DNA of 64,000 nt from Phycisphaerae bacterium (lineage in GTDB: Bacteria > Planctomycetota > Phycisphaerae > Sedimentisphaerales > Anaerobacaceae), in NCBI GenBank assembly GCA_030604525.1, contig JAUVVQ010000005.1, forward strand, positions 15,162 through 79,161, written 5' to 3'. Position 1 is the first letter of the stretch. Each line of letters starts with the position of its first letter. The notes below the pieces were generated by a model. That model saw nothing but the letters and a program-made list of their open reading frames with translations. It was not told where the DNA came from and ran no database searches. The position numbers were made by a program, and so were the translations under genes. Below, piece by piece: positions 11,099 through 28,387 of the stretch.

Positions 11099-11991
11099 GT
11101 CTTAGTTATAGAATTCTCTGGATAGACGATAACCCTACAACCATCAGGAGTAAGGTAAATCAAATCAGAACTTTCTTAGAAAAACAAGGTTTTAGGCCAG
11201 TGATAGATGTAATCGAAAGCGGGAATAATATAGAAAGCCACCTGTTAGACCCGCTTTTGGATTTAATTGTCACTGATTATAGAATACATGATGATTTGAA
11301 TGGAAAAGAGGTGGCTGAAGGAATCCGGGAATCAGATGTGATGGTTGATATTATCCTGTATTCTCAAGTCGCGGGTACGGATTTATACAAAGAGGTAGGT
11401 ACTTTAGATGGTGTTTACATTTCAAACAGGCAAGGATTGGAAGACAAGATTAAGGAAGTTATTGAAATCACCATAAGAAGAACACAAAGAGTGAGCAGTA
11501 TGCGGGGGATTGTAATTTCGGAAGCAATTGATATTGAGAATCAAATTGAAGATATCATCTTGTCTTATTACGACACCAGGGAAAAAGAACTGGCTAAGGT
11601 ACTGTTAAGCGGCGATGGTTGCAATGATCTTGGCCCTAAAATACGGTTTCTCAATTCTACGCTGAAGGATATTATTGCATCTATAAAAAGTAGTGATCAA
11701 GCAACAGAGAAAAAGATGCAACAAAAGATAGAACTGCTACTTAGCACAGCCAAGAAACTTGAAAACGAAGTCTGCAAACCCAGAGATATGCTTGCTCACG
11801 TTGAGCATACGATCGACAACAACACAATATTTTTAAAAAGTCTAAAATCTGGGTATGAAGATATCAAGATAGATACGGGTTGTTGTCAAAAAATGAGGCA
11901 ATCGTTTATGAAACACGCATCAAACCTTGAACAAATCAAAAGTTTTCTCTCCAAGTGGCATGAATATAAGAAAAAAGTACAAAAGAATTAA
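11095..11991 (+). CDS. Receiver (REC) domain protein with a helical C-terminal HEPN-like domain (Rx4H)
   Basis: ILWIDDNP (D11/D12), LIVTD (D61) and ILYS (S90) fit a receiver domain. The C-terminal domain carries KPRDMLAH (R230-x4-H235). An ATGA overlap couples it to the upstream kinase gene. Confidence 0.6.
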   Translation: MSLSYRILWIDDNPTTIRSKVNQIRTFLEKQGFRPVIDVIESGNNIESHLLDPLLDLIVTDYRIHDDLNGKEVAEGIRESDVMVDIILYSQVAGTDLYKEVGTLDGVYISNRQGLEDKIKEVIEITIRRTQRVSSMRGIVISEAIDIENQIEDIILSYYDTREKELAKVLLSGDGCNDLGPKIRFLNSTLKDIIASIKSSDQATEKKMQQKIELLLSTAKKLENEVCKPRDMLAHVEHTIDNNTIFLKSLKSGYEDIKIDTGCCQKMRQSFMKHASNLEQIKSFLSKWHEYKKKVQKN

Positions 11992-12664
11992 TAAACTAAA
12001 AATAAAATGGTTTCAAACTCAGTTAGCCCATTGGTTCGAACTCAATAATCGCAAATTTCCCTGGCGCGAAGGAAATTGCTCAAAATACCAGTTAATAATA
12101 GCTGAGGTTTTGCTTCAAAGAACTAAAGCCGAAACAATCGCAACCTTCTTCCCCTTTTTCATTAAACAATACCCTTCTTGGAAATCATTGTCTTCTGTGA
12201 ATAAAACAAAGTTAAAAAAAGACTTGAAACCAATCGGACTTTGGAAAAGAAGGTCTGATACTTTAAAGAGATTATCAACCGCGATGGCAAAACGTGGAGG
12301 GAGATTTCCAAGAACCAGGGGAGAAATTGAAGAATTACCGGGAGTTGGACAATACATTGCAAATGCAATTCTGATGTTCTGTCAAGATGAACCACAACCG
12401 TTACTCGATATGAATATGGCGAGAGTATTGGAAAGATTTTTCGGACAGCGTCAATTGGCTGATATACGTTATGATCCATATTTGCAAGAATTATCCCGAA
12501 GAGTTCTTCCCAAGAATCATGCGAAGGAATTTAACTGGGCAATCCTTGATTTTGCCTCCTTGATTTGTAAGGCCAGAAAACCTCTATGTTTGAAATGTCC
12601 CCTTAAAATCAGGTGCCAGTATTTCGACCATGATAAAGGAGTTGTGCTTGTCAAGCGGTCGTAG
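11960..12664 (+). CDS. HhH-GPD DNA glycosylase of the EndoIII/MutY family (Mig-like, [4Fe-4S] loop)
   Basis: FPWRE...VLLQRTKAE, HhH motif LPGVGQYIANAI, Asp context LLDMNMARVLERFF, and the cluster loop C-x6-C-x2-C-x5-C (CKARKPLCLKCPLKIRC). The start is uncertain: the ORF track gives 11927, and the second Met is at 11960. Confidence 0.85.
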   Translation: MNIRKKYKRINKLKIKWFQTQLAHWFELNNRKFPWREGNCSKYQLIIAEVLLQRTKAETIATFFPFFIKQYPSWKSLSSVNKTKLKKDLKPIGLWKRRSDTLKRLSTAMAKRGGRFPRTRGEIEELPGVGQYIANAILMFCQDEPQPLLDMNMARVLERFFGQRQLADIRYDPYLQELSRRVLPKNHAKEFNWAILDFASLICKARKPLCLKCPLKIRCQYFDHDKGVVLVKRS

Positions 12665-12960
12665 GGCCATCGCAAAACGGCTGAAATTCCAATGATTGCT
12701 TTTTGAGAAATGAATAAACCTGCAGGTGTCAGTGATCAAAAGTTGTCGTGCATATCAAACTCAATCAAAACACAACAGTGATGCCTTAAAATTTGATATA
12801 TTGACGGATATTCTTTGTGTTAAGAAGTATGAAACTTAAAAATGAATCCGCAAAACTACGCAGCTTTTTTAAGCCGATAACCCATTATCCGTATTTGACG
12901 GAAAAAGTGTTGTTTAATATTACATAGAACTGTTTTGGGGTCACGTTCGGGTCTGGCTGG

Positions 12961-13085
12961 CTCGCGGATTAACTGCTCATTGATAGAGGGCGGTGCATTA
13001 AAGTCAAAAGTATCAAGTGTTTTTATTACAGGAAAGCGAGCGGGTTTTACTCGCCTTTCAGCAGTTCGTCAAAAGTACAGTTTAT
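12961..13085 (-). pseudogene. IS21-family IstB helper ATPase, N-terminal fragment
   Basis: The minus-strand translation AERRVKPARFPVIKTLDTFDFNAPPSINEQLIRE matches the conserved IstB segment upstream of Walker A. It is preceded by a frameshifted TFDELLKGE. No Walker A or later sequence follows. Confidence 0.55.
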
Positions 13086-13150
13086 GGTTAGTTTTTGATT
13101 AGCTGGGCAATAATTGGCTTTTGTTTACATATCCTGTCCCTGAAATCTGC

Positions 13151-13179
13151 TTGCTAATATCCGATTTCGCTGGTATCAT
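13151..13179 (+). promoter_or_regulatory. Possible sigma70-like promoter for the type I R-M operon
   Basis: TTGCTA, 17-nt spacer, TATCAT, about 70 nt upstream of the hsdM ATG. Confidence 0.3.
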
Positions 13180-13251
13180 CTGGAAAAATTGTCTCTGTAA
13201 TTCATTGGAGAGATAGCAATATGGCTGGGAATCCAAGGAAAGGAATTCGTA

Positions 13252-15294
13252 ATGAACAACTTTGGTGATAAGGTCAGTTTTATATGGAGCGTAGCTGACT
13301 TGCTTCGCGGGCCGTATAAGCCAAATCAGTACAGGGACGTAATGTTGCCTCTCACCGTGCTGCGGCGTCTGGACTGTGTACTGGAACCGACTAAAGGCAA
13401 GGTGCTGGCCAAACTAAACGCCCTAAAAGGCGGCTCTGTCAAGAATATCGAGCCGATTCTTAACCGTGCTGCGGGGCAGCAATTTCACAATACCAGTTTG
13501 CTTGATTTTAACAAACTTAAAGGCGATCCCAATAATATCGCAGCTAACCTGGTTAGTTATACTAAAGGCTTTTCTTCAAAGGCACGCGAGGTAATAGAGT
13601 ATTTCGATTTTGAGCCCCATATCGAGAAGCTGGACAATGCCAATCGCCTGTACTTGGTGGTTAAAAAATTTGCAGAAATCGACCTGCATCCTGATGTTGT
13701 TTCCAATACAGAGATGGGTTACATCTTTGAAGAGCTTATTCGCAAGTTTAACGAAGCAGCCAACGAGGAAGCCGGTGACCATTTCACCCCTCGTGAGGTC
13801 ATCCGTCTTATGGTCAACCTGCTTTTTTCTCAGGATAATGCAATCCTGACCACAAAGGGTATCGTAAGAACTCTCTACGACCCTGCGTGTGGTACAGGTG
13901 GTATGTTGTCGGTTTCAGATGAATATCTTCGTGAGCTAAATCCAGATGCTCGACTCGAAGTTTACGGCCAGGAATATAATCGATTTGCATATGCAACCTG
14001 TGGCTCGGATATGATAATTAAAGGCCAAAGCCTTGAAAATATTAAATTCGGCGACACATTCGGCGATGGTAAAACCTCTGACGGTCTGCCACGTCATAAG
14101 TTTGATTATATGCTGGCAAATCCGCCATTTGGTGTTGAATGGAAGCCAGAGGCAGATGAGGTCAGAAAAGAATACGACCAGCAGGGTTTTACCGGCAGAT
14201 TTGGGGCTGGAGTTCCCCGGATTAACGATGGGTCGTTCCTGTTCCTACAGCATATGATATCCAAAATAAAGCCTGTAAAAGATGGCGGCAGCCGTATTGG
14301 AATAGTATTCAATGGCTCACCTTTGTTTACCGGCGATGCGGGTTCTGGCGAATCAAATATTCGCCAATGGATTATAGAACATGATTGGCTTGAAGCCATA
14401 ATCGCTATGCCCGACCAGTTGTTTTACAATACCGGCATATTTACATATATCTGGATAGTTACCAACCGCAAGGAGAAGAAACGTAGAGGTAAAATTCAGC
14501 TTATCAATGCTGTTGAGTTTTATCAGAAAATGCGAAAGAGCCTTGGCAACAAGCGTAATGAGATTGGCGACGGACAAAATGGACGACCGAACCACATTGC
14601 AGAAATTACTCGTATTTATGGCGAATTTAAGGAATCAAAATACAGCAAGATATTCAACAACGATGATTTTGGCTTTCGCAAAATAACTGTTGAAAGGCCG
14701 CTCAAGTTAAGCTTTCAGGCAACTGCTGAGCGCATTAAATCTCTAATGGAGACAAAAGCTTTTGTTAATCTGGCTAAGTCCAAAAGGAAAAAAGGTTCTA
14801 AGATAGCCTTGGCTGAAATAGAAGCAGGACAAAAGTTGCAGGCCGACATTCTTGAAGCTTTGAAAACGCTTGATGCCGACAAGATTTACAAAAACCGTGA
14901 TGCTTTTGATAAAGACCTGGCTGTTGCGATGAAAGCTGCAGATATCAAGCTGCCTGCCCCAGTCAAAAAGGCGATTCTAAACACTCTTTGCGAACGGGAC
15001 GAGACAGCTGATGTTTGCACAGACAAAAAAGGTAACCCTGAGCCGGATACCGAGCTTAGAGACTATGAAAATGTGCCGTTAAAGGAGGATATTTACGAAT
15101 ACTTCAAACGTGAAGTTCTGCAGCACGTACCCGATGCATGGATTGACGAGAGTAAGACCAAGGTTGGCTACGAGATACCTCTAAACCGGCACTTCTATGA
15201 ATATACCCCGCCAAGACCACTTGCAGATATTGAGTCTGATATTAAGGCCCTCGAAGGAGACATCGTAAAAATGCTGGGGGAGGTGACAGGATGA
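13252..15294 (+). CDS. hsdM: Type I restriction-modification methyltransferase subunit
   Basis: N-terminal HsdM-type region, motif I DPACGTGGML, motif IV LANPPFGVEW. Operon context with hsdS and hsdR. Confidence 0.95.
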   Translation: MNNFGDKVSFIWSVADLLRGPYKPNQYRDVMLPLTVLRRLDCVLEPTKGKVLAKLNALKGGSVKNIEPILNRAAGQQFHNTSLLDFNKLKGDPNNIAANLVSYTKGFSSKAREVIEYFDFEPHIEKLDNANRLYLVVKKFAEIDLHPDVVSNTEMGYIFEELIRKFNEAANEEAGDHFTPREVIRLMVNLLFSQDNAILTTKGIVRTLYDPACGTGGMLSVSDEYLRELNPDARLEVYGQEYNRFAYATCGSDMIIKGQSLENIKFGDTFGDGKTSDGLPRHKFDYMLANPPFGVEWKPEADEVRKEYDQQGFTGRFGAGVPRINDGSFLFLQHMISKIKPVKDGGSRIGIVFNGSPLFTGDAGSGESNIRQWIIEHDWLEAIIAMPDQLFYNTGIFTYIWIVTNRKEKKRRGKIQLINAVEFYQKMRKSLGNKRNEIGDGQNGRPNHIAEITRIYGEFKESKYSKIFNNDDFGFRKITVERPLKLSFQATAERIKSLMETKAFVNLAKSKRKKGSKIALAEIEAGQKLQADILEALKTLDADKIYKNRDAFDKDLAVAMKAADIKLPAPVKKAILNTLCERDETADVCTDKKGNPEPDTELRDYENVPLKEDIYEYFKREVLQHVPDAWIDESKTKVGYEIPLNRHFYEYTPPRPLADIESDIKALEGDIVKMLGEVTG

Positions 15295-16658
15295 TAAGCC
15301 CGCTGGATGCAATTACAAAATTTTATTTAGAATCGCATCGATTCAATGGATATCCATTTGTAAATTTAAAGCAAGAACTCGGGATGAATTTTCACGACGC
15401 TTTTAATTTTGTAAGAGAGAATGTTAATAATGGAACTCTTACAGCTGTTTTTGGTGATATGCACCCAAATCCGCATATCAAAGCTTTTTCTGATGAGCCA
15501 CAGAAAAATATTATAACTAAACTGAATCAGCATAAAGATAAAATGAATGAGAGTTTTAATGAATATTCAGCTAATGATCCTGATAACTCTGCTTACAGCA
15601 AAATAGGAAATTGTGCTATCAAATTTGCGACGGGCATAACAGTCTGCCTTTATCCCACGAGGTTACATCTTGAGAGTATTGTCAATCCAGATGGCTACAA
15701 AGATCGTCCTTATACCTATGAAATGGCACTGGGGGCAGGCCAGTTAGAGTTTCGCTACTTTGAATTAACTGTACTTGAATTTTATAGAAACGATCCCAGA
15801 TATTACTATTGGTGTGATGACATTAATGGACGTATTTCTATACACGATGAACACTATCACGGCGAATCAATGGCGGAGAAAGACAAAGTTTTATTAGAGA
15901 CATTTGGTTTTGCTTATGATAATGATACACATCGTGCAGTCACAACTTTAGTCTACTATATTTCCAAGTTATCACCAGAGCATCAGCAGGTATGGAAAAA
16001 TCAGGAATTAGACTCCTCTAAATACAGACCGCATCCGGATTATTATCGTAACAATATCCTTGGAGACTGGGGCGAAAAGATTCCTATTTGCACAGCATTT
16101 TTGATGGAATTGAAAATCATAAATCAAATGTGTGTTGCGATGGGTAAACCAGCTTTGTTTCGTAAAGACTTTGATGGTGACGATAAACCACGTAATTTTT
16201 CTTTTCTCGTTAGACCTACTCATAAAGAGTATTATGATTTTGTTGGTCTTCTGGACAAAATGATGTCTGATAATGTTAATAAAAAGTTTTTTGAAAATGA
16301 CATATCCTGTGAAGACGAGGAAACTCGCCCTGATGGCAAAATTGTAGTTAAACAAAAAGGGACAATCCAATTATTGAAGGAATGGATAAATAAATACTAT
16401 CATCCTCAAGGTCAGAAGCCGATGGATGATATTTTCAAGGCGTTTCGTAAAGTAAGAAAGGAAAGGCAGCGTCCTGCCCATGCTATTGATGACGATAGAT
16501 TCGATCAAAAATATTTCGCAGATCAGCGTCAGATTTTAAAAGAAGCTTATGGTGCAGTCAGGACCATACGTTTGGTTTTCGCCAATCATCCTGCTGTAAA
16601 GGCTGCAAAAATTGATATCCCTCAGAATCTTTTTGAAGGCAAAATATGGACTTGTTGA
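15291..16658 (+). CDS. Hypothetical protein (455 aa) embedded between hsdM and hsdS
   Basis: ATGA overlap with the hsdM stop. No domain recognised. A basic segment near the C-terminus, FRKVRKERQRPAHAIDDDRF, contains an R-x4-H spacing. Confidence 0.6.
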   Translation: MISPLDAITKFYLESHRFNGYPFVNLKQELGMNFHDAFNFVRENVNNGTLTAVFGDMHPNPHIKAFSDEPQKNIITKLNQHKDKMNESFNEYSANDPDNSAYSKIGNCAIKFATGITVCLYPTRLHLESIVNPDGYKDRPYTYEMALGAGQLEFRYFELTVLEFYRNDPRYYYWCDDINGRISIHDEHYHGESMAEKDKVLLETFGFAYDNDTHRAVTTLVYYISKLSPEHQQVWKNQELDSSKYRPHPDYYRNNILGDWGEKIPICTAFLMELKIINQMCVAMGKPALFRKDFDGDDKPRNFSFLVRPTHKEYYDFVGLLDKMMSDNVNKKFFENDISCEDEETRPDGKIVVKQKGTIQLLKEWINKYYHPQGQKPMDDIFKAFRKVRKERQRPAHAIDDDRFDQKYFADQRQILKEAYGAVRTIRLVFANHPAVKAAKIDIPQNLFEGKIWTC

Positions 16659-16675
16659 TCTAACAGGAGAATAAT

Positions 16676-17008
16676 ATGGCAATATTAGACACGGCAAAAA
16701 CAATAGCTGAACTTGCTAAAAAGGGTATGACTGTAGAGCTTCAGGAAAAGATTGTGGAGCTTAGAGAAGAAGTGATAGCTCTTAAAGAAGAAAACGTTCA
16801 ATTGAGAGAGGAAAACCTACAATTAAAGCAACAACTTAATGGCTATGCTAAAGGCAACCTTTGCCCGAAATGCAAGAAAGATACATGGCAGCTTGAAGAA
16901 AGTAAACCGCATCCTATCATGCAAGATATGGGTATTATTTTGAGGACATATAAATGTTCGCAATGCGGTTTCTCTGAAGAATATGATTATACGCCGAAAG
17001 GTCATTAA
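16676..17008 (+). CDS. Coiled-coil plus zinc-ribbon small protein (110 aa)
   Basis: Leucine-zipper-like VELREEVIALKEENVQLREENLQLKQQL, followed by CPKC...CSQC (a four-Cys ribbon). Confidence 0.55.
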   Translation: MAILDTAKTIAELAKKGMTVELQEKIVELREEVIALKEENVQLREENLQLKQQLNGYAKGNLCPKCKKDTWQLEESKPHPIMQDMGIILRTYKCSQCGFSEEYDYTPKGH

Positions 17009-17025
17009 CAAAACCCCTAAAAGCC

Positions 17026-18960
17026 ATGGAAACAAAGCATAAAAAATATGACAAATACAAACCTTCCGGCATTGAGTGGCTGGGTGAAGTGCCTGAGCAT
17101 TGGGATGTTAAACGGCTCAAATATATGACTTCAATTAATGATGAGGCTTTGGCAGAATCAACACCATCTGATTACGAGATTCTATATGTTGACATTGGAA
17201 ATGTTGATTCCGCTAAAGGAATTACAAAAAAAGAACTAATGGTCTTTGAAGAAGCTCCGTCAAGAGCAAGACGTATTGTTCAAAACGGTGATACGATAGT
17301 CTCTACTGTCCGCACCTATTTAAGAGCCATTGCCCCAATTGAAATCGCAGAAGACAACCTAATAGTATCAACGGGCTTTGCCGTTGTCAGACCAAGAGAG
17401 ATCAACAGTAATTATCTTTCCTATGCTCTACGTTCACCCTATTTCGTAGAAACAGTTGTCTCTCGTTCTGTAGGAGTTAGCTACCCCGCGATTAATGCAA
17501 GTGATCTTGCTACTATTGAAATCACATTCCCCAACATCTCTGAACAAGAAGCCATCGCTGATTTTTTAGATCGCAGGATGTGTGAGATTGATGAGTTGAT
17601 TGCCAAAAAGGAGCGGGTGATTGAATTACTCAGGGAAAAACGCACAGCCCTTATCAGCCATGCCGTTACCAAGGGCCTTAATCCAGATGCAAAAATGAGA
17701 GACTCTGGTATCGACTGGCTGGGAGATGTGCCGGAACATTGGGAACTAAAAAAACTAAAGTATCTTGTTAAAGAAAAGCTTAAGTATGGAGCAAACGAAT
17801 CCGCTGAATTGGATGATCCGTTGTTGCCAAGATACATCCGAATTACTGACTTTGGAGATGATGGCAAACTTAGAGACGATACCTTTAAATCTTTACCGCA
17901 AGACAAGGCAAAGGAATATTTGCTTGGGGAAGGAGATATTTTATTTGCCAGAAGCGGAGCTACTGTTGGCAAAACGTTTCAATTTAAGAGTTATGATGGG
18001 ATAGCTTGTTTTGCAGGCTATCTGATTAAAGCCAGTCCTGATAAGGATAAAATACTTTCTGATTTTGCGTATTACTACACAAAATCAAATGCCTATGACA
18101 ATTGGAAAAACAGTATTTTTATTCAGGCTACCATCCAAAATATTGGAGCAGACAAGTACCAAACATTACTTGTTACACAACCCTCATTAAATGAACAAAC
18201 AGAAATCACTGACTATCTTAACCGTGAGACAGCCAAGATTGACGCTTTGATGGCTAAAGTTACAGATGCAATAGAGAAGCTGAAAGAATACCGCACAGCA
18301 TTGATCTCCGTAGCGGTGACGGGAAAGATATGTATTACAGAACAGAAGGTATCTGAACAGAAAAAACCGGCACGTCGGGCAACACCGGAGTTCAAGCGTA
18401 CAGTTCTGGCAGCAGAGATTGTTTGCCAGATGCATACTGACAATACTTTCGGGCGGGTTAAGTTTCAGAAATGCTTGTATCTAACTGAACACATTTTACA
18501 GCTTTCTGAATTCAAAGGACATTATCATAGAGATGCAGCCGGGCCACTTGACAACAGACTGATGCACTCGGTAGAGGGGCAAATGAAGAGACTTAAATGG
18601 TTTGAAGCTCTCAATGTTGCAGGGCGAGTAATATATGTTCCCATGGAGAAGGTAGATGGATACAAACAGTATTTTCAAAGATATTGGGGCAACTTGAGGA
18701 CAAGGGTTCAGGAATTAATTGAAATTCTGCGACCAATGAATACTGAGCAGGCGGAAATTGTTGCTACGCTGTTTGCCGCATGGAATGACCTCATTATAAT
18801 CGGAAAGCCATTAGATGATTCAATAATCCTCGATGAAGTCCTTAATAAATGGCATCCCCAAAAAGCTGATATTACACGTGAAAGATGGTTAATTGCTCTT
18901 GATTGGATGAGAAACAAAGGCCTTGTCCCGCAAGGATATGGAGAGACCACGATAATGTAA
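17026..18960 (+). CDS. hsdS: Type I R-M specificity subunit with an extra C-terminal domain of about 200 aa
   Basis: Duplicated HsdS architecture: WLGEVPEHWDVKRLKY and WLGDVPEHWELKKLKY, plus two conserved coiled regions (ALISHAVTKG and ALISVAVTGK). The protein then continues for about 200 aa beyond the normal end. Confidence 0.9.
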   Translation: METKHKKYDKYKPSGIEWLGEVPEHWDVKRLKYMTSINDEALAESTPSDYEILYVDIGNVDSAKGITKKELMVFEEAPSRARRIVQNGDTIVSTVRTYLRAIAPIEIAEDNLIVSTGFAVVRPREINSNYLSYALRSPYFVETVVSRSVGVSYPAINASDLATIEITFPNISEQEAIADFLDRRMCEIDELIAKKERVIELLREKRTALISHAVTKGLNPDAKMRDSGIDWLGDVPEHWELKKLKYLVKEKLKYGANESAELDDPLLPRYIRITDFGDDGKLRDDTFKSLPQDKAKEYLLGEGDILFARSGATVGKTFQFKSYDGIACFAGYLIKASPDKDKILSDFAYYYTKSNAYDNWKNSIFIQATIQNIGADKYQTLLVTQPSLNEQTEITDYLNRETAKIDALMAKVTDAIEKLKEYRTALISVAVTGKICITEQKVSEQKKPARRATPEFKRTVLAAEIVCQMHTDNTFGRVKFQKCLYLTEHILQLSEFKGHYHRDAAGPLDNRLMHSVEGQMKRLKWFEALNVAGRVIYVPMEKVDGYKQYFQRYWGNLRTRVQELIEILRPMNTEQAEIVATLFAAWNDLIIIGKPLDDSIILDEVLNKWHPQKADITRERWLIALDWMRNKGLVPQGYGETTIM

Positions 18961-18988
18961 AAGATAAAAATTTTTAAGGAAAGTCAAT

Positions 18989-19333
18989 ATGGCAAAAGAA
19001 ATAACGGATATTGATATATTGCAGCAGTATTTGGAAGGTGTTATGGAGCGAAGTGAACATCATGCTGACGAAGTGAATGAGATTATTCTGGCATTGATTG
19101 GGGCAGTTATATGGAAGAAAAACAGCAGACCCATCAAAGTTAAAGAGTATGCTGGCGAACTCGCGAATGTTCTATGGTGGCACAGCAAAGGCGGTAATAA
19201 GTATGCCTTTAGATACAATCATGAACAAAAAAAGATAGAATTGAGGAAAGATACTTTCAAGGGTAATTTGGTTATGGCTTTTGACAACAATACCGAGATA
19301 GATGAAATTATTAATCTGTTCGGAACGCTGTAA
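18989..19333 (+). CDS. Hypothetical protein (114 aa)
   Basis: ORF in operon register between hsdS and hsdR. No domain recognised. Confidence 0.5.
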   Translation: MAKEITDIDILQQYLEGVMERSEHHADEVNEIILALIGAVIWKKNSRPIKVKEYAGELANVLWWHSKGGNKYAFRYNHEQKKIELRKDTFKGNLVMAFDNNTEIDEIINLFGTL

Positions 19334-19379
19334 ATGACTGGTATCGTAACCGGGAAAATTGATGTAAGAGAGAATTAGA

Positions 19380-19739
19380 ATGCTATTAGATGTTCATGGC
19401 AATCGAGTTAATAGAGATCCTCATCGAGAACAGTTCGATGCATGGCGTCACGGGATATCCAACGAAAATTTTCAGGCAATGGAAGATGCAATCAATGATT
19501 TTTGCGACCGAAATGATGAGTTTCGTTCAAGTTTTATGCCCGGGCAGGATGAGGCTATTGGAAGATTATTTCCTATTTTAACGGCTGCCTGCAATGGTAA
19601 CGAGCAAGACGCTGGTTTATTTTTTGGAAATATCGTATGGCGAATTCTGGATGACAGACCCGAAGAATGGCGTTTTGCCCGATCTGAGCAAGATGAGGAA
19701 AATCCGCTTGGAATGTTTTACTGGCGAAGAAATAGCTGA
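19380..19739 (+). CDS. Hypothetical protein (119 aa)
   Basis: ORF in operon register. No domain recognised. Confidence 0.45.
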   Translation: MLLDVHGNRVNRDPHREQFDAWRHGISNENFQAMEDAINDFCDRNDEFRSSFMPGQDEAIGRLFPILTAACNGNEQDAGLFFGNIVWRILDDRPEEWRFARSEQDEENPLGMFYWRRNS

Positions 19740-19781
19740 GATTGATATAAGAATAATGATAATCCGTGAAAAGGAATTAAA

Positions 19782-20720
19782 ATGATTGGTAAAATCAAAA
19801 GAGTTGGTTTACGGGAAGTTTGGAAACATGAAGCCTATGACTTTACCCAGTGGCTGGAAGATAATATTGATGTACTCAATGATGTAATAGATATCAATTT
19901 ATCTAACGCTGAAAGAGAAAGAGCCGCGGGTACTTTCAGTGCGGACCTGGTAGCGGAAGACGAGAAAGGCAATCCAGTTGTCATAGAAAATCAACTCGAA
20001 AAGAGCAACCACGACCATTTGGGTAAACTTATCACGTATTTGACTGCTATAGGGGCTAAGGCGGGTATTTGGATAGTGGCTGATCCACGACCTGAGCATG
20101 TTAGTGCAATCTCCTGGCTTAATGAGTCAAGCTCCGCTTCGTTTTATCTATTGAAGGTAGAGGCAATTAAGATCGGTGAATCCAAACCGGCACCGCTGTT
20201 GACTTTGATTGTGGGCCCGAGTGAGGAAAGCCGTGAAGTGGGTAAGACAAAGAAAAACCTTGCCGAGCGTCACATATTACGAGAAAAGTGGTGGTCAGTC
20301 TTGCTGGATAATGCAAAAGCTAAAACAAAACTACATGCCAAGCGTTCTACAACAAAATATAACTACATTAACGCGAGTTCCGGTAAACGAGGCCTTGGTT
20401 ATATGTACAGCGTTAACCAAAACAACACCACAGTAGAACTATATGTTGACAGAGGTGGGGATTCAAAAGAGGAAAATGAACGCATCTTCGACAACCTGAA
20501 ACAGAATAAAGCTGAGATTGAATCAGCTTTTGGCGAAAAGCTTGAGTGGGAAAAACTGGAAACTAAACGAGCATGCAGAATTATCAAACGTTTTTCTCTT
20601 GGTGGATATAGGTCCGATGAAGAACAATGGCCGGGTATTCATGATAAGATGATAGATGCAATGATAAGATTAGAAAAGGCCCTCGGCCCATATATTAAAA
20701 AGATGAAAATTGGAGCGTAA
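19782..20720 (+). CDS. PD-(D/E)XK-like N-terminal domain plus DUF4268-like C-terminal domain protein
   Basis: FSADLVAEDEKGNPVVIENQLEKSNHDHLGKLITYL is the signature seen in DUF4268-family proteins that are often linked to type I R-M loci. Confidence 0.65.
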   Translation: MIGKIKRVGLREVWKHEAYDFTQWLEDNIDVLNDVIDINLSNAERERAAGTFSADLVAEDEKGNPVVIENQLEKSNHDHLGKLITYLTAIGAKAGIWIVADPRPEHVSAISWLNESSSASFYLLKVEAIKIGESKPAPLLTLIVGPSEESREVGKTKKNLAERHILREKWWSVLLDNAKAKTKLHAKRSTTKYNYINASSGKRGLGYMYSVNQNNTTVELYVDRGGDSKEENERIFDNLKQNKAEIESAFGEKLEWEKLETKRACRIIKRFSLGGYRSDEEQWPGIHDKMIDAMIRLEKALGPYIKKMKIGA

Positions 20721-20723
20721 CCA

Positions 20724-23714
20724 ATGGCCATAGATCACACAGAAAAAGCCTTTGAAACAGCAATTGAAGATTCTCTGTTAAACCAGGGCGGATACAGCAA
20801 AGCTGATCCCAAAAACTTTGACAAGTCTCGATGTTTAGACCCTACGGTATTAGTTCCATTTATTCAGGGGACTCAGCCTAAAGTATGGCAGGCTTTGGAA
20901 GATATTCACGGCGCCGACACAGATACGATTTTGCTGGATGACCTTGTAAAGGCGATGGATTCGCAGGGCAGTTTGAACGTTATCCGACACGGCTTTAAGT
21001 GCTTTGGCAAACTTGTGTGTGTCGCTTATTTTGCTCCGGCCCATAAGATGAATCCTGATATCCAACGACTATACGAAGCTAATCGGCTTACAGTTACCAG
21101 GCAGCTTAAATACAGTACGGCAAATGAAAACAGCCTCGATGTAGTGCTTAGCCTTAATGGGTTGCCGGTAATAACTGCCGAGTTGAAAAATCCCATTACC
21201 GGTCAGACCGTCGAGCACGCCAAACATCAGTATAAAAACGACCGTGACCCGAGAGAAAGGATATTCGAGTTTAAGAAACGGGCTCTTGTGCATTTCGCTG
21301 TTGATCCCGACCTGGTTTTTATGACAACAAGATTGAGTGGGAAAGCAACACACTTTTTGCCTTTTAACCTCGGTGATGGCACAGGAGCAGGCAATCCTCA
21401 ACCCAAAGACCGTTCCAAGTACAAAACTTCGTATCTTTGGGAGTATGTCTGGGCGAGAGAGAGTTTTCTTGACATTCTGGGACGGTTTCTGCATCTACAG
21501 ATTGAGGAAAAAAACATTGGCGCAAAGAAGATTCGCAAAGAAACTATGATTTTCCCGCGTTATCAGCAATTGGACGTGGTACGTAAGCTGGAGGCTGACG
21601 CCAGAGAAACCGGGGCCGGCAAAAACTACCTCATTGAGCATTCGGCTGGTAGCGGCAAGAGTAATTCAATTGCTTGGCTGGCGCATCGTCTGTCGAGTTT
21701 GCATGATGAGCAGGATAAAAGGATTTTTGATTCGGTTGTAGTAATTACTGACCGCCTTGTGCTTGACCAGCAATTGCAGAACACTATCTATCAATTTGAA
21801 CACAAACAAGGCGTGGTTCAAAAAATAGATGAAGATTCAACACAGCTTGCAGACGCCTTAATGACCGGTACGCCAATTGTCATTACTACGCTTCAGAAAT
21901 TTCCCTTTGTAACTGAGAAAGTCGGCACTCTGCCAGATCGCCGGTATGCTGTTATTATTGATGAAGCACACAGCAGCCAATCAGGTGAAAGTGCTACTGA
22001 ACTTAAGGGCGTGTTAGCTTCTGAACACATTCGCCAACAGGCGCAAGCTGAGGCAGAAGAACTTGGGCTGCCCGATTATGAAGAGGAAATCCTGCGTACT
22101 ATGGTAAAGCGAGGCAGGCAGCCAAACATCAGCTTTTTCGCGTTCACAGCGACCCCAAAATTTAAAACACTCAAGGTATTTGGTCAACCTGGTGCCGATG
22201 GCAAGCCGGAGCCATTTCATCTCTATAGTATGCGTCAGGCTATCGAAGAAGGGTTTATTCTTGATGTGTTGAAAAACTATACTACATATAAAACATATTA
22301 CAGGCTCATCAAGTCAATTGAGGATGACCCCGAGGTTGATAAAAGAAAAGCGGCCCGGGCATTGGCCAGGTTTATGAGTCTGCATCCACATAACATTATC
22401 CAAAAGACCGAAGTTATAATTGAGCACTTCCGCCACTTCACACGCCATAAGATAGGTGGTAAGGCCAAGGCAATGGTTGTAACCAGTTCACGTTTACATG
22501 CCGTACGTTATAAAGAAGCTTTTGATAAGTATATTGCGGAAAAGGAATACGCGGATATTCACACGCTGGTAGCGTTCTCAGGTACAGTAGAAGATCCGGA
22601 CGTTAAGGATAAGACTTACACCGAAGTTGGTATGAATCTGGGAATCAGGGAGAAAGAACTGCCGAAGCAATTCGCAACTGCCGAATATCAAGTTTTAATT
22701 GTGGCTGAGAAATACCAGACTGGATTCGACCAGCCATTGTTGCACACTATGTATGTAGATAAGCGTCTCTCCGGTATACAGGCAGTACAGACGCTTTCAC
22801 GTTTGAACCGCACATGTCCTGGGAAAGAAGATACATTTGTGCTGGACTTTTACAATGATACGCAGGAGATTCTTGAGTCATTCCAGCCATATTACGAACA
22901 AACCTGTATTGGCGAAGACTCCGACCCTCGTCAGCTCTATGATATGCAAGCAAAAATGGATGAGCAACATATCTATTACCATGAAGACATTGAAGGCTTC
23001 TGCAGAGTATTCTTTAAAAACAAACTTATTCAATCACACAGCGACCATGCAATGATGAACTCTTTTCTCGACCCTGCGGCGGCAAGATTTTCAGATTTAG
23101 ACGAGGATTCACAGGAAGAATTTAGAAGTCTTTTATACACGTATCGAAATCTCTATTCGTTCCTTTCACAGGTAATTCCCTACCAAGACAGTGATCTGGA
23201 AAAACTGTATACGTATATCAGATTCCTGATTCCTAAGTTACCCAGAAGGATGTCAGGGCCAAAATATAACTTTGACAATGAAATAGCACTAAAATACTAC
23301 CGCCTTCAGAAAATTAGTGAAGGAACTATTCATTTAGAACCTGGTGCCGATACTGAGGTTAGCGGGCCAACTGCAGTGGGGACAAGTAGGGGCGAAAGTC
23401 CACAAGTGGAATTGTCTCAACTGATCGACATTATAAATGAACGGTTCGGAACAAACTTTAAACCTGCAGACCAGTTATTCTTTGACCAGACAAAAGAAGA
23501 AGCGGTTGCTAACGAAGATTTGAGACAGGTGGCTCATGCCAATCCCTATGAAGGATTCCATTTGGTTTTTCGGAAGGTACTTGAGGGGCTTTTCATTGAC
23601 AGAATGGAACAGAATGAAGGTATCTTTGCAAAATTTATGAATGACCCCGAGTTCAAGACAATTGTTGAGGATGGTCTTGGCCGACAGGTCTATGACCAGA
23701 TTCGGTCGAAATGA
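20724..23714 (+). CDS. hsdR: Type I restriction endonuclease R subunit
   Basis: N-terminal nuclease motif DVVLSLNGLPVITAELKNP. Helicase motif I EHSAGSGKSNS, motif II VIIDEAHSSQ, motif III FAFTATP, motif VI QTLSRLNR. Confidence 0.95.
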   Translation: MAIDHTEKAFETAIEDSLLNQGGYSKADPKNFDKSRCLDPTVLVPFIQGTQPKVWQALEDIHGADTDTILLDDLVKAMDSQGSLNVIRHGFKCFGKLVCVAYFAPAHKMNPDIQRLYEANRLTVTRQLKYSTANENSLDVVLSLNGLPVITAELKNPITGQTVEHAKHQYKNDRDPRERIFEFKKRALVHFAVDPDLVFMTTRLSGKATHFLPFNLGDGTGAGNPQPKDRSKYKTSYLWEYVWARESFLDILGRFLHLQIEEKNIGAKKIRKETMIFPRYQQLDVVRKLEADARETGAGKNYLIEHSAGSGKSNSIAWLAHRLSSLHDEQDKRIFDSVVVITDRLVLDQQLQNTIYQFEHKQGVVQKIDEDSTQLADALMTGTPIVITTLQKFPFVTEKVGTLPDRRYAVIIDEAHSSQSGESATELKGVLASEHIRQQAQAEAEELGLPDYEEEILRTMVKRGRQPNISFFAFTATPKFKTLKVFGQPGADGKPEPFHLYSMRQAIEEGFILDVLKNYTTYKTYYRLIKSIEDDPEVDKRKAARALARFMSLHPHNIIQKTEVIIEHFRHFTRHKIGGKAKAMVVTSSRLHAVRYKEAFDKYIAEKEYADIHTLVAFSGTVEDPDVKDKTYTEVGMNLGIREKELPKQFATAEYQVLIVAEKYQTGFDQPLLHTMYVDKRLSGIQAVQTLSRLNRTCPGKEDTFVLDFYNDTQEILESFQPYYEQTCIGEDSDPRQLYDMQAKMDEQHIYYHEDIEGFCRVFFKNKLIQSHSDHAMMNSFLDPAAARFSDLDEDSQEEFRSLLYTYRNLYSFLSQVIPYQDSDLEKLYTYIRFLIPKLPRRMSGPKYNFDNEIALKYYRLQKISEGTIHLEPGADTEVSGPTAVGTSRGESPQVELSQLIDIINERFGTNFKPADQLFFDQTKEEAVANEDLRQVAHANPYEGFHLVFRKVLEGLFIDRMEQNEGIFAKFMNDPEFKTIVEDGLGRQVYDQIRSK

Positions 23715-23828
23715 AGTTCCAAGGTAAATAGTGCCAGTTTAACGCATGAAGCAAATTGATAAGAAAATCGACACCCACGGCGGCTGGCCGATAAAATAAA
23801 AATTGAACTTTTAACAAGATTAAATCTT

Positions 23829-24134
23829 ATGGCACTCATAGCAAATTTAAGGCATTATCTTGGCGATGATCTAAGCCTGGTGAAAATTCCCGCACCCGCA
23901 GCAACATTAAGGGAGTTCATGGGCTGTTTGGTGGAAGCCGTTACCCTAAGAGACCCCGATGACGAAAATTATGTTACATCGCTAAAATGTCGGCATGGCT
24001 GTGATGGCGATATTATTGTTTTTTTTGACCCAAACGATCCTTCGCCTATCAAGTGGTCTTGCTTCTTCTGCAAAGATGAAGGTCAGCTTACCGGATGGGA
24101 AGGAACTGTCTGGGACAAAAGTTCCGGTCAGTAA
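23829..24134 (+). CDS. Hypothetical Cys-containing small protein (101 aa)
   Basis: ORF only. No domain recognised. Confidence 0.3.
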   Translation: MALIANLRHYLGDDLSLVKIPAPAATLREFMGCLVEAVTLRDPDDENYVTSLKCRHGCDGDIIVFFDPNDPSPIKWSCFFCKDEGQLTGWEGTVWDKSSGQ

Positions 24135-24329
24135 GCACATGTGCTACAGAATCTCTCAGAGGTATTTTTGCCCATAAAATCTCGAACTGGTCTTGATGCA
24201 GTGTAACAGTCTATCTTTAAAAATCAGCTATTTACAAAACAAGTCGATTTTCTAGGCCGTCTTTGCTATAATGCTCCCCTCATTAGAATTTATAGGAGAT
24301 GTTAATTATTATGAGGTGATGAAAGAATT

Positions 24330-24607
24330 ATGAAAACTCGACCTTGGACAATGCTGTTAATGATGCTAGTAGGTTGGATGAATCGGCAGCAACAGGAAGT
24401 TATCGAATACTTAAAAGCTGAGAATGGCATACTCAGAGATGAATTATTAAAGGCAAAATATATGAAACTTATGAGGATGGCAAAAAAGATATTTTCAATT
24501 ACACCGAGGTGTTCTATAATCGTAAACGAAGACATGCTTCGCTGGGCTATGTAAGCCCAGTCGTATATGAGGAAATGCATGAAATGAAACAGGGTCGGGC
24601 GGCATAA
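24330..24607 (+). pseudogene. Chimeric transposase remnant: N-terminus of an rve-type transposase joined to the C-terminal tail of an IS3-family OrfB
   Basis: MKTRPWTMLLMMLVGWMNRQQQEVIEYLKAENGILR parallels the N-terminus of the intact transposase at 26945. From about 24464, a different frame reads DIFNYTEVFYNRKRRHASLGYVSPVVYEE, which is the IS3 OrfB tail. Confidence 0.6.
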
Positions 24608-24674
24608 TTGGCAAGTCAAGTGTCCGCCATCTGTTTGGCACCTCATTTTTGTGATTGTATAAACAACAAAAGGG

Positions 24675-26039
24675 TTGCAAGGTATGACAAAACACCACGA
24701 GTATTGGCAAACAGGTATTACCGAGTTGGATAAATTATTATTTGAAGGGCGTGGATTTAGAAGGGGAAGGGGATATATCATATCTGGACCTTCTCAATCA
24801 GGAAAAACTATCCTCGCAATGTGTTTAGTGAGAAATATAATCAAACAGGGTGGTGCAATCACATATATGACAATGGGTAGATCAGCAAAAGACCTTGTGG
24901 AATTGTATCAAGCATTCAATATAGATATTAATAACTATTTGGAGGCGATGTGTTTAGTAATCCTTGATTGGTCCACAATCAAAGCTGGTGGTAATATCAA
25001 GCGAACCAAAAGGGAATTGGAAAAATATCTTTCCAAGAAGGCTATTGCCAACATAAGATTTTGTACCGACCCATGCAGCAAAGAGGAGTTTATTGGCAAA
25101 ATTAATGAAATTCATGAAGAAAAGGCGAGGTTTCATGGCAAGCCAGGAGTTGGAGTTGTAGATGCTATCTCCGAGCAAATAGTGCAACTGAGCAGGAAAG
25201 GACTTCCTGGGGCTATTGTTTCGGAAATATATTTAGCTGCCCGGCAGAGGTTCTCGATGGAAGAACCTGGTACCGCTTTCCATCTATTTTCACCATTGGA
25301 AGAACGTGTGGGCTGTGAATATTCAGTGCTCATAGAGGATCTACATCTCAATGAGGATGGAACAATAAACTTGGCACTTGAATTTAATGATGGAGGTGAA
25401 GTCAAAAATAGGAACATGTGGGTACGCTCTCTATATGGAGGCAAAGCTCCAAGTAAAAAACTTAATTTTGAAATCAATGTTGAAGACATAATTAGAATAA
25501 TAGATCCTGTGAACCAGTCAAATGAAATGGAATGTATGCGAGTTAGTAATTTATCAAAATCTGCGCGGCTTATTGAAATCCATGAAATAGATGAATTTCA
25601 AAATATCAGAAGTATTTCTAAAGCCAACATAACGGAACGTGATATTGCTAATATCAGGTGCCTAGATGAAGCAAGAGAGTTAGAACGGTATATCCGAGAT
25701 ATTTTGAATGATTCAAATGTGACTCCTCATGGGCCTACGGAGATTGCGGATATCTTAACAACATGCGTTCATGTGAAAGGAGAAGGGAGAATCGCTGCTT
25801 TTATTTTAAAAGGAAAAAGTTATAAGAAGGTTACAAGCAGGGATGTAACTCATCAATTCGCCAAGGTTCGACAAATACAGGGTATTGGCCTAATGGTCCT
25901 AGTTGCAGTGGGACATATTCATGATGATGCAAAAAGAGATTTTTTTCAGGCTGCTCAAGATGCAGGATGTGACTATCTTATTATTGATACGAGGAATTGC
26001 TGGCGTCTATTAGTTGCCTATGGAAAAATCAGTCCATAA
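24675..26039 (+). CDS. KaiC/RecA-like P-loop ATPase fused to a C-terminal Mrr-like (PD-(D/E)XK) nuclease domain
   Basis: N-terminus: TGITELDKLLFEGRGFRRGRGYIISGPSQSGKTILAM (RecA/KaiC-type Walker A context). C-terminus: HGPTEIADIL...AAFILKGKSYKKVTSRDVTHQF...LMVLVAVGHIHDDAKRDFFQAAQDAGCDYLIIDTRNCWRLL follows the Mrr_cat pattern. Confidence 0.55.
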   Translation: MQGMTKHHEYWQTGITELDKLLFEGRGFRRGRGYIISGPSQSGKTILAMCLVRNIIKQGGAITYMTMGRSAKDLVELYQAFNIDINNYLEAMCLVILDWSTIKAGGNIKRTKRELEKYLSKKAIANIRFCTDPCSKEEFIGKINEIHEEKARFHGKPGVGVVDAISEQIVQLSRKGLPGAIVSEIYLAARQRFSMEEPGTAFHLFSPLEERVGCEYSVLIEDLHLNEDGTINLALEFNDGGEVKNRNMWVRSLYGGKAPSKKLNFEINVEDIIRIIDPVNQSNEMECMRVSNLSKSARLIEIHEIDEFQNIRSISKANITERDIANIRCLDEARELERYIRDILNDSNVTPHGPTEIADILTTCVHVKGEGRIAAFILKGKSYKKVTSRDVTHQFAKVRQIQGIGLMVLVAVGHIHDDAKRDFFQAAQDAGCDYLIIDTRNCWRLLVAYGKISP

Positions 26040-26108
26040 AACATCAAACTATAAAAAAATCTCAGCTAACAACAAAACCTTTATATATGTTGAAAGGAAA
26101 ATTTTATT

Positions 26109-26753
26109 ATGAGCAATGATAAAGAAATATTTGAAAAAATATATGAACAAGGAGCAGTCTGGACAGAATCCGAGCCACCTAAAGAATTGGTAAATTTAAT
26201 TCAGAGTGGAAAAGTTAAACCATGCAAGGTTCTTGATGTTGGATGTGGCGAAGGATTCTATGCTATTTATTTGGCTTCAAAAGGTTTTGAGGTAACAGGA
26301 ATAGACATATCAGAAAATGCTATAAAACTAGCAAAAGGAAATGCGGCGACACAAGGCGTAAAAATCAAATTTATGCCTCTTGATGTTGCAAATTTAGATA
26401 AAATAAATGACAAATTTGATTTTGTATTTGAATGGGCAATTTTGCATCATATAATCCCCGAGCAAAGACAAAAATATGTAGAGAACATTAAGGGGATTTT
26501 GAATAAAGATGGGAAGTATCTATCTGTTTGTTTTAATGATCAAAACCCTGACTTTGGACAGAAAGGCAAAAAATTAAGAATAATTCCTGAAGGTGCAAAA
26601 ATGCCTGCTGGCACAAGATTATATTATTCATCCCTTGAAGAAATGAAAATCTTATTTGAAACACATTTTCGTACAATTGATTCCAAACTGATTAAGATGA
26701 CAGCTGGTGGAAAAGAACATATTGGCAACTATTTTTTTATAGAAAAATACTAG
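26109..26753 (+). CDS. Class I SAM-dependent methyltransferase (small-molecule type)
   Basis: Motif I VLDVGCGEGFYAIYLASKG, then EVTGIDISENAI. Size and layout fit a Methyltransf_11/25-like enzyme. Confidence 0.8.
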   Translation: MSNDKEIFEKIYEQGAVWTESEPPKELVNLIQSGKVKPCKVLDVGCGEGFYAIYLASKGFEVTGIDISENAIKLAKGNAATQGVKIKFMPLDVANLDKINDKFDFVFEWAILHHIIPEQRQKYVENIKGILNKDGKYLSVCFNDQNPDFGQKGKKLRIIPEGAKMPAGTRLYYSSLEEMKILFETHFRTIDSKLIKMTAGGKEHIGNYFFIEKY

Positions 26754-26944
26754 CTTTTAAGTGGTTTGTAAATATGGTTAATGAGATTACATCAGAAGCA
26801 TGAATTAATGGCGAACTGAAAATTTTATTTCCTTAATTGAAGTAAGTGGAATTAACACATCAGTGTACCCATACAAAATCATAAGCATAATAAAATAAAA
26901 AGAGTAATTCAACCAATATACAATTTACAAATATAGGCGTTTAC

Positions 26945-28006
26945 ATGAAAATAAAACCTTACACAATGCTGTTGGTGATGATGGCAGGATGGCTAAACAG
27001 ACATCAGCAGGATGTGATTGAGTACCTCAAAGAAGAAAACAAGATTCTACGGGAAAAACTTGGTAACAAGCGAATACTTCTCAATGATAGTCAAAAAATG
27101 CATTTGTCTCGCTTGGGCAAGCGTTTAGGCAGAAAAGTATTAGAAGACGCCTGCTGTATATTTTCCCCAGACACAGTTCTCCGCTGGCATAGGTCCTTGG
27201 TTGCCCGGAAGTATGATGGATCAAAAAACCGTAAGCCCGGCAGAAAACGAATCACCTTGGAACTGGAACAACTCATCATCATGTTGGCCCGAAAGAATAA
27301 GACATGGGGTTCCCGTAGAATTAAGGGTGCGTTAAAGTATCTGGGCTACAAGATTTGCCATACTACGATTGATAACGTCCTTAAGCGGAATGGTTATGAT
27401 CCCAGTCCAGACCGAGGTAGAAAAACAAGATGGTCGGAATTCCTGAAATCCCATTGGGAGTCCCTTGCAGCTATCGATTTTTTCACGGTCGAAATTTATA
27501 CGTTGGCTGGCTTAACACGATATTATGTCCTTGTCTGTATTGATTATGCTACTCGTAAAGTTGAAATTGTAGGAATATCTCAGCAGCCATACGGTGATTG
27601 GATGAACCAAATGGCTCGCAATCTGACAGACCCATTTGAAGGATTTCTAAAGGGCAAGAAATACATTATCCACGATAGAGACCCTTTGTTCAGTAAAGAG
27701 TTTCGTCAGATATTGAAGTCCTCTGGGGTTAGACCAATCCGAACGCTCCCTATGTCACCTCATTTAAATTGTCTGATTGAAAGGTTCGTCCGGACCATAA
27801 AAAGTGAGTGTCTAAATCGGATGCTCATCTTCGGAGAACGTCATTTAGAATATTTGACCAATGAATTCGTTCAGCATTATCATAAAGAGCGAGCACATCA
27901 AGGTCTTGACAATGAAATCATCGAACCTCCTCCCCAGGGAACAGGAGAAATAGTCTGTCAGGAGCGGCTTGGCGGGCTGTTGAAATTCTACAGGAGGGCC
28001 GCTTAA
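26945..28006 (+). CDS. DDE (rve/integrase-core) transposase, IS481/IS3-like, apparently intact
   Basis: N-terminal HTH region, then D (AAIDFF), D (IHDRDPLF) and E (LIERFVRTIK), with a C-terminal YHKERAHQGL. Terminal inverted repeats were not identified. Confidence 0.8.
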   Translation: MKIKPYTMLLVMMAGWLNRHQQDVIEYLKEENKILREKLGNKRILLNDSQKMHLSRLGKRLGRKVLEDACCIFSPDTVLRWHRSLVARKYDGSKNRKPGRKRITLELEQLIIMLARKNKTWGSRRIKGALKYLGYKICHTTIDNVLKRNGYDPSPDRGRKTRWSEFLKSHWESLAAIDFFTVEIYTLAGLTRYYVLVCIDYATRKVEIVGISQQPYGDWMNQMARNLTDPFEGFLKGKKYIIHDRDPLFSKEFRQILKSSGVRPIRTLPMSPHLNCLIERFVRTIKSECLNRMLIFGERHLEYLTNEFVQHYHKERAHQGLDNEIIEPPPQGTGEIVCQERLGGLLKFYRRAA

Positions 28007-28347: not shown

Positions 28348-28387
28348 CCCTGAACGGACTGAAAATCCGTGTGTCGGCGGTTCAGGG
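28348..28387 (-). terminator. Hairpin downstream of tRNA-Thr (probable terminator)
   Basis: 8-bp stem CCCTGAAC/GTTCAGGG. On the minus strand it is followed by GTTTTGT. Confidence 0.35.

Follow-up and report, generated by a model that had tools for sequence, protein, structure and literature searches.

Why should a Type I restriction-modification (R-M) operon hold five further genes between its three subunit genes, and do these genes belong to its immune function? We examined this question in a segment of eight consecutive open reading frames (ORFs) on the + strand of a Phycisphaerae bacterium contig (JAUVVQ010000005.1). The segment is located at 13252-23714 of the 64,000-nt stretch that was analysed (hereafter the window; all coordinates are window-based). 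The five passengers are co-directional with the R-M genes, with P1 and P2 between hsdM and hsdS and P3, P4 and P5 between hsdS and hsdR. The ORF list agreed with an initial annotation of the same DNA on this arrangement, and the gaps recomputed from the ORF coordinates were, in order, -4, 17, 17, 28, 46, 42 and 3 nt, exactly as given there. We consider it likely that the segment is a Type I R-M operon with two exchangeable slots that hold a stack of accessory modules.

The earlier identification of hsdM, hsdS and hsdR was borne out by Pfam and PADLOC. HsdM matched HsdM_N (PF12161, E=7e-26), N6_Mtase (PF02384, E=1e-53) and, over its full length, the PADLOC model MTase_I (PDLC03029, E=7e-294). 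Its translation contains the NPPF motif (LANPPFG) and was 92-93% identical to its counterparts in the orthologous loci L081, L088 and L092. About 200 residues of HsdM lie past the methyltransferase domain; PDLC03029 covers these wholly and spans the full protein, and the long C-terminus is therefore a trait of the lineage and not a local fusion. The core of HsdS matched Methylase_S in two stretches (PF01420, E=6e-20) and Specificity_I of PADLOC (E=6e-120, residues 4-444 of the 448-position model), and showed two target-recognition domains parted by conserved helices. HsdR matched TIGR00348 (E=1.5e-57), the PADLOC model REase_I and the DEAD domain, in addition to the domains listed in Table 1. 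The segment is apparently an intact Type I R-M operon.

We compared this operon with its orthologues in a metagenome scan for HsdR. The scan confirmed at least 533 relatives among 600 pattern-matched stretches, and the best 80, which were 68-94% identical, were kept. We located hsdM, hsdS and hsdR in these 80 loci and clustered all ORFs between them into families; the comparison set consisted of the 57 non-redundant operons with hsdM and hsdR both on the contig. Nineteen of the 57 were compact, with hsdM, hsdS and hsdR and no passengers, and 38 carried one to five. A load of five passengers was found elsewhere in only one of the 57 operons (L112). The junction between hsdM and hsdS (the M-S slot) was occupied in 22 operons, the junction between hsdS and hsdR (the S-R slot) in 30 and both in 16, with 36 passenger families in total, 13 of them recurrent. 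The recurrent cargo included Fic (PADLOC SoFic, E=4e-52), a DUF1016/YhcG PDDEXK nuclease (PDC-S02), DUF5655 with a NucS-like domain (PDC-S18), PIN_4, Peptidase_M78 (ImmA/IrrE) followed by DUF4411, a PycTM-like membrane protein and RhuM. Schlafen AlbA_2 with HATPase_c_4, AAA with a subtilase, DUF3644, an ion channel and a 470-aa protein with a FokI cleavage domain were also recurrent. The identities of the genes, the mosaic layout and the varying cargo of the orthologues are direct observations.

The borders of the two slots were visible in the DNA of the closest operons. Homology to these operons began upstream near 13093-13215. In blastn comparisons with L081, L088, L089 and L092 it stopped at 15294-15300, no more than 6 nt from the hsdM stop codon, and resumed at 20697-20723, at the start of hsdR. 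Between the end of hsdM and the start of hsdR, the shared DNA comprised the conserved helices of HsdS (~17540-17773 and ~18191-18330) and P4 only. Because homology breaks so sharply at the hsdM stop and the hsdR start, we read the M-S and S-R junctions as exchangeable cassette slots within a conserved frame. The cargo would probably be exchanged by recombination anchored in conserved hsdM, hsdR and HsdS helices. With breakpoints at gene boundaries and 36 cargo families over two slots, the locus shows, in one R-M lineage, Type I operons as exchangeable racks for immune genes.

That Type I operons host embedded immunity genes, as the initial annotation had stated, was upheld both by the cargo of the orthologous slots and by published work. 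Defence genes inside Type I R-M, BREX, DISARM and Hma systems have been identified by 'guilt-by-embedding', and genes nested in Type I R-M, BREX and DISARM served to define the PDC systems (Payne et al., 2024, bioRxiv 10.1101/2024.01.29.577857). The window operon resembles these embedded systems in its co-directional genes nested among subunit genes and in its highly variable cargo, and PDC-S11 (P5), PDC-S02, PDC-S18 and SoFic all occur in the slots of this lineage. It differs in standing at the loaded extreme, with five ORFs and a fused domain, and in that four passengers and the fused domain fall outside PADLOC-DB v2.0.0. Embedding in Type I operons is thus already published and the phenomenon itself would not surprise a specialist. 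The locus offers three specific, testable leads: the P1 family, which has no known fold or annotation; the P4 family, found beside two unrelated nuclease types; and an antitoxin-like domain that is repeatedly fused to HsdS.

All activities that we assign to the operon products are ones that we infer, and the firmest assignment concerns P5. P5 matched the PADLOC model PDC-S11 (PDLC04914) with E=5.9e-142 over residues 2-309 of 312, and its C-terminal part matched DUF4268 (PF14088, E=4e-31, residues 166-305). The N-terminus showed a weak match to the NCBIfam NucS family (E=5.7e-5, residues 34-92), which is under the family cut-off. Acidic residues are present there in ADLVAEDE...VVIENQLEK, which may include a counterpart of D63 in the ECOR34 protein described below. 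P5 was 87% identical to the gene in the same position of L090.

A 2026 preprint gives the name 'Madara' to a gene of E. coli ECOR34 that is PDC-S11 in PADLOC, and describes its anti-phage activity as modification-dependent (bioRxiv 10.64898/2026.09.05.749240). The protein is reported to restrict T4 with glucosylated hydroxymethylcytosine and to spare T4 with plain cytosine. It reportedly has a NucS-like PD-(D/E)XK domain, in which the D63A mutant is inactive, and an EVE-like C-terminal domain (same source). P5 is like Madara in its end-to-end model match, its putative NucS-like N-terminus and its DUF4268 C-terminal domain. It also neighbours a methylation-based system whose action it could supplement, as the ECOR34 gene neighbours BREX. 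The two differ in that P5 is embedded in a Type I operon and preceded by P4, whereas the ECOR34 gene is divergent to BREX; the likeness is one by family profile. From its homology to this tested family, P5 would most likely act as a back-up against phages with hypermodified DNA that evades Type I restriction.

P4 was the sole passenger retained across the closest R-M relatives. It had six close homologues and, by HMMER (E<=1e-3), 239 relatives among 50%-identity cluster representatives; these relatives are mostly stand-alone proteins of ~120 aa. An alignment of the P4 family has 22 invariant columns. Pfam, PADLOC and PDB sequence and profile searches gave no family or PDB match. A match of P4 to a NACHT-LRR protein was judged likely spurious, the target being repeat-rich. 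One relative of P4 is fused to a sigma70_r4 helix-turn-helix (HTH) domain.

A P4 homologue stands directly 5' of the FokI-like 470-aa gene in L081/L087, L088, L089, L091 and L083-86. In the window and L090, the gene that P4 precedes encodes DUF4268; in L123, P4 lies directly before hsdR. P4 precedes both FokI-like and DUF4268 genes and is therefore a companion of two unrelated nuclease types. The 313-aa gene 3' of P4 in L084 was tried as a third nuclease type and rejected, as it is a contig-truncated copy of the FokI-like gene. P4 is thus a small acidic protein whose gene is usually found just ahead of a nuclease gene; as a guess, it could act as a regulator, inhibitor or adaptor. The FokI-like protein itself (463-470 aa) combines 300 N-terminal residues that lack annotation with a FokI cleavage domain at the C-terminus, and is encoded between the P4 homologue and hsdR (L081 4427-5839, L088, L089, L091 and L084 1151-2089). 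It had no PADLOC match and is a candidate embedded nuclease system.

The hsdS of the initial annotation held for the specificity core, but a fused 199-aa extension, effectively a sixth passenger, had been overlooked. HsdS usually ends near residue 445 (...AVTGKI), and the window frame runs 199 residues further. The AlphaFold2 (AF2) model of this extension had a predicted local distance difference test score (pLDDT) of 93.7 and a predicted template modelling score (pTM) of 0.90. The top Foldseek matches came from the M. tuberculosis DarT-DarG complex (7YK3, chains B and D), with a probability of 1.00, a template modelling (TM) score of 0.55-0.58 and 196-203 aligned columns, which is nearly full-length. 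The N-terminal half also resembles winged-helix proteins. A 36-sequence profile of the extension gave no sequence match in the PDB.

The helical antitoxin domain at the C-terminus of DarG in 7YK3 is described as a homologue of DUF4065 (Panacea) proteins (PMC13621843). From this statement, the chain length and the helical fold, the matched chains are most likely the DarG C-terminal domain (CTD). A GPV motif near residue 62 matters for the function of Panacea antitoxins (PMC8832971), and the extension has an invariant G61-P62. Judging from the model, the extension probably has a DarG-CTD/Panacea-like fold. The fold match, the Gly-Pro at the position of the Panacea GPV motif and the varied toxins (Zeta, TIR and Fic) beside some of its relatives liken it to these antitoxins. 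It differs from them in being fused to a DNA-specificity subunit, where the others are free antitoxins or macrodomain fusions, in having no PF13274 match and in that no cognate toxin was identified in the window.

The same fusion to HsdS was found in L100, L128 and L165, with 51-55% identity over the extension and differing specificity domains. In L154 the extension (48% identity) lies immediately before hsdR and its upstream end is beyond the contig edge. The extension also aligned to the C-terminus of the PADLOC HsdM model PDLC03039 (positions 510-700), and in other lineages the DarG-CTD/Panacea-like domain is seemingly fused to HsdM. Homologues of the extension occur as stand-alone proteins of 194-243 aa as well. 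In the Type I operon of L175 (231-4701), a stand-alone copy overlaps a Zeta toxin gene just 5' of hsdR, and in that of L170 (3689-11510) one lies after hsdS and before a CAP12-PCTIR TIR gene. The fused copies are followed by Fic in L165 and by Schlafen-AlbA_2 in L128; in the window it is followed by P3, which does not belong to the known toxins. Outside these operons, stand-alone homologues in L171-L174, L176, L177 and L183 overlap an upstream gene of ~203-254 aa as a conserved pair, and these pairs adjoin Bil-like E1/E2/JAB or multiubiquitin operons and Pycsar-like genes. The surroundings of these relatives agree with an antitoxin-like role.

The HsdS extension offers the strongest clue to a possible physical connection of the cargo with the R-M complex. 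In the scheme we propose, the HsdS-fused domain would probably bind and hold an embedded effector, or otherwise couple the cargo to the M2S methylase core; the narrower claim, that the extension neutralises or tethers an effector encoded in the operon, is tentative. Were it true that the fused domain tethers effectors, it would offer a general mechanism for 'guarded' back-up defences, which are now known mainly from PrrC.

Precedents exist for effector genes in this position. In PrrC/EcoprrI the effector lies between the hsd genes and backs up R-M against evading phages, so that embedding as such is long known. TgvAB of V. cholerae VPI-2 is a tested example of effector genes nested in a Type I R-M operon. 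The window operon shares with both the presence of effector gene(s), here putative, between hsd genes, and differs in that a link to R-M is suggested here only by the HsdS-fused domain. A PrrC-type or GmrSD-like passenger was rejected, since only P5 matches PADLOC, with PDC-S11 only, and P1 has no Walker A motif.

P1 belongs to a widespread family with more than 1,240 homologues in bacteria and archaea. A scan with one genome per species confirmed 167 stretches, of which 80 loci from many bacterial and several archaeal phyla were kept. Members of the family have ~423 aa (420-455), and the window copy has a 27-aa insertion. Over 115 sequences, 38 columns were invariant, including an ExYRxDPRY block and R389/R392-x-x-P395-x-H397; an HPNPH block was invariant only in a smaller alignment of 20 sequences. 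P1, whose AF2 model had a pLDDT of 79, has a probable N-terminal winged helix-turn-helix (wHTH) and a C-terminal helical domain with an invariant R392-x4-H397. In this Rx4H motif, which lies between predicted helices 375-392 and 406-431, R392, P395 and H397 were invariant and Q393 was conserved in >90% of the 115 sequences.

P1 had no match in Pfam, NCBIfam, PADLOC, PHROGs or the PDB (sequence and profile), and Foldseek against the PDB and BFVD returned nothing with E<0.4. A Pfam scan of the 115 family members gave scattered sub-threshold wHTH matches only. The NCBI name 'AAA family ATPase' was rejected for P1, since the family lacks both a Walker A motif and an AAA profile match; the same name on the family members P0043, P0069, P0083, P0090 and L178 6806-8032 is probably a propagated annotation error. 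P1 as part of a conserved multi-gene system was also rejected, with no recurrent neighbour family in the 80 genome loci. In L168, a P1 homologue occupies the same M-S slot, again with a 4-nt overlap with the upstream gene; it shares 67% identity with the P1 of the window, and HsdR of L168 is likewise 67% identical to its window counterpart.

The searches with P2 gave sub-threshold coiled-coil matches only, for example to ZapB and YabA. CxxC motifs are present at residues 63 and 94, and these pairs form a putative zinc ribbon. P2 homologues follow a P1 homologue in L169/L002 (68%) and lie directly after hsdM in L129 (61%). P2 occurs without P1 in L129 and is therefore separable from it. By weak inference, P1 with or without P2 may be a candidate stand-alone defence gene that pairs the wHTH with the Rx4H helical, perhaps HEPN-like, domain.

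P3 matched the Vch_cass14 family (PF18315, E=1.1e-27, residues 11-104), PDB 3IMO_A (E=2.9e-30, residues 1-112) and phrog_5959 (E=9e-29). Vch_cass14 is a structural-genomics orphan; in the crystal it forms a dimer that has a basic face on its beta-sheet and a deep hydrophobic pocket (PMC3548836). No tblastn match to P3 was found in 50,697 phage records despite the PHROG match. The gaps beside P3 are just 28 and 46 nt, which we judge too short for the attC site that would flank an integron gene cassette, and there was no integron integrase nearby.

Several results weigh against accessory modules as the explanation of the cargo. The initial annotation had proposed accessory immunity for some or all of the passengers; this gained support for P5, whose family has published anti-phage activity, while P1-P4 had no match in PADLOC-DB v2.0.0. 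Linkage to hsd genes across genomes was likewise strong for P4 and P5 only: P4 travels with the R-M lineage and with nuclease genes, and the linkage of the other three is weak or single, with P1 in the same slot once (L168), P2 in the M-S slot once (L129) and P3 here only. The Foldseek E-values of the HsdS extension were just 1e-3 to 3e-3, and it had no Pfam match, DUF4065/PF13274 included, even at E<=5. No effector gene follows the extension in L154 and L100, and in L154 the next gene is hsdR. A HEPN-like C-terminal domain in P1 is doubtful: HEPN had no Pfam support among the matches listed for the 115 members (E<=5) and no significant fold match, the best being the sacsin HEPN domain (E=5.8, TM 0.37). 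P1 homologues stood solo with mixed neighbours in 78 of the 80 genome loci, and few of these neighbours were of defence type. P3, which was not found in the other 80 orthologous operons and whose plasmid homologues adjoin tyrosine recombinases or integrases, could be plain mobile cargo and is the passenger most likely to be so. Finally, co-transcription is judged solely from ORF spacing and the absence of terminator-like sites.

These results bear on the explanation that the passengers are hitch-hikers, that is, addiction or toxin-antitoxin (TA) modules and mobile cargo in permissive junctions that stabilise the island or are neutral. Phage defence would then come from the R-M genes only, perhaps with P5. 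P3, as a member of an integron-cassette family found beside tyrosine recombinases on plasmids, fits this explanation, and so do the P1 homologues, which are scattered and solo near insertion sequence (IS) elements and integrases. The commonest Pfam families among 150 P1-neighbour genes were integrases (4), with transposases, HEPN_Apea, Peptidase_U49 and PIN at 2 each. However, families on record as defence systems or candidates predominate in the cargo of the orthologous operons. An integrase fragment, an IS transposase and a tRNA gene border the island, but no transposase or integrase lies within the window operon, where the tight spacing and same-strand order argue for selected co-expression. 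The HsdS extension is antitoxin-like and has relatives paired with a Zeta toxin, which is classic addiction biology, although TA modules and defence are not mutually exclusive. We regard hitch-hiking as an unlikely account of the operon.

A different explanation treats the small passengers and the HsdS extension as accessory parts of the R-M machine. They would serve as restriction-alleviation regulators, as assembly factors or as sensors that detect anti-restriction proteins of phages and then release an effector, following the logic of PrrC/EcoprrI. At least four diverged operons (window, L100, L128 and L165) encode the antitoxin-like domain as part of the HsdS chain, and the domain aligns to the C-terminus of the HsdM model PDLC03039, but its homologues also occur far from R-M genes, beside the Bil-like ubiquitin-type operons. 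P4 is the one passenger that the closest R-M relatives have all kept, it can adjoin the start of hsdR (L123) and one of its relatives has the sigma70_r4 HTH fusion, yet 19 of the 57 orthologous operons do without any passenger. In addition, no passenger matches PrrC or another PADLOC model, P5 excepted. Such a role in the machine seems improbable for these proteins.

More speculative still is the proposal that the Type I methylase core is a physical guard hub by way of the fused domain and, separately, that P1 founds a structurally new single-gene defence family; we think this rather a long shot. The hub may keep one or more operon-encoded effectors inactive and set them free once M2S is struck by a phage anti-restriction protein or some other insult, which, if true, would generalise the PrrC/EcoprrI logic to interchangeable cargo. 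That P2, P3 and P4 are chance open frames in long intergenic spacers is extremely improbable: the ORFs are short (110-119 aa) and P2 has low-complexity coiled-coil matches only, but P2 has homologues in unrelated contigs (61-68%), P3 a Pfam family and a crystal structure, P4 its 239 cluster representatives and 22 invariant columns, and each of the three a Shine-Dalgarno (SD)-like motif. The passengers are real genes because homologues or family matches exist for all of P1, P2, P3, P4 and P5.

The accessory modules and the R-M genes would probably share one transcript that starts at the hsdM promoter. Within 12500-24700 there were no terminator-like sites on the + strand, all 17 such matches being on the - strand. 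One transcript for the eight ORFs is plausible because the spacing is tight and + strand terminator-like sites are absent. SD-like purine-rich motifs were found 5' of seven of the eight starts, including those of P2, P3 and P4. The GC content of P1, P2 and P3 was 0.365-0.377 (P1 0.365), compared with 0.444 for hsdM and 0.44 for hsdR. The features of the segment are listed in Table 1.

Table 1. Features of the Type I R-M segment, with window coordinates
Feature	Coordinates	Strand	Size	Remarks
Promoter-like site 5' of hsdM	13151-13179	+		TTGCTA-17-TATCAT with upstream TG; consensus scan only, 9/12 matches
hsdM, Type I methyltransferase subunit	13252-15294	+	680 aa	HsdM_N, N6_Mtase, PADLOC MTase_I
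P1	15291-16658	+	455 aa	Widespread uncharacterised family
P2	16676-17008	+	110 aa	Coiled coil and two CxxC pairs
hsdS, whole ORF	17026-18960	+	644 aa	Methylase_S; fusion of core and extension
hsdS core	17026-18360	+	aa 1-445	Two target-recognition domains
HsdS in-frame C-terminal extension	18361-18960	+	199 aa	DarG-CTD/Panacea-like (model)
P3	18989-19333	+	114 aa	Vch_cass14 family, PF18315
P4	19380-19739	+	119 aa	Small acidic protein, isoelectric point 4.6
P5	19782-20720	+	312 aa	DUF4268 / PADLOC PDC-S11
hsdR, restriction/translocase subunit	20724-23714	+	996 aa	HSDR_N, SWI2_SNF2, ResIII, T1R_D3-like

Judged from its neighbouring genes, the operon sits in a defence/mobile island. Downstream of hsdR (23829-28464) we found a 101-aa ORF, a KaiC-like ATPase (24675-26039) and an S-adenosylmethionine (SAM) methyltransferase. 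An rve-family IS transposase (26945-28006) and then a tRNA-Thr gene (28393-28464, - strand) follow, which looks like an island boundary. Upstream, the + strand at 7607-12664 encodes a Dcm-type C5 methylase (399 aa), a 763-aa protein with HATPase_c_3 and HATPase_c, a 298-aa receiver-like protein and an HhH-GPD glycosylase-like ORF. These genes are co-directional and overlapping and form a possible second defence module, which is preceded by a truncated tyrosine integrase (6332-6961, - strand). Further upstream (4637-6294, - strand), two adjacent PEP-CTERM-anchored proteins of 306 and 240 aa hint at an exosortase system.

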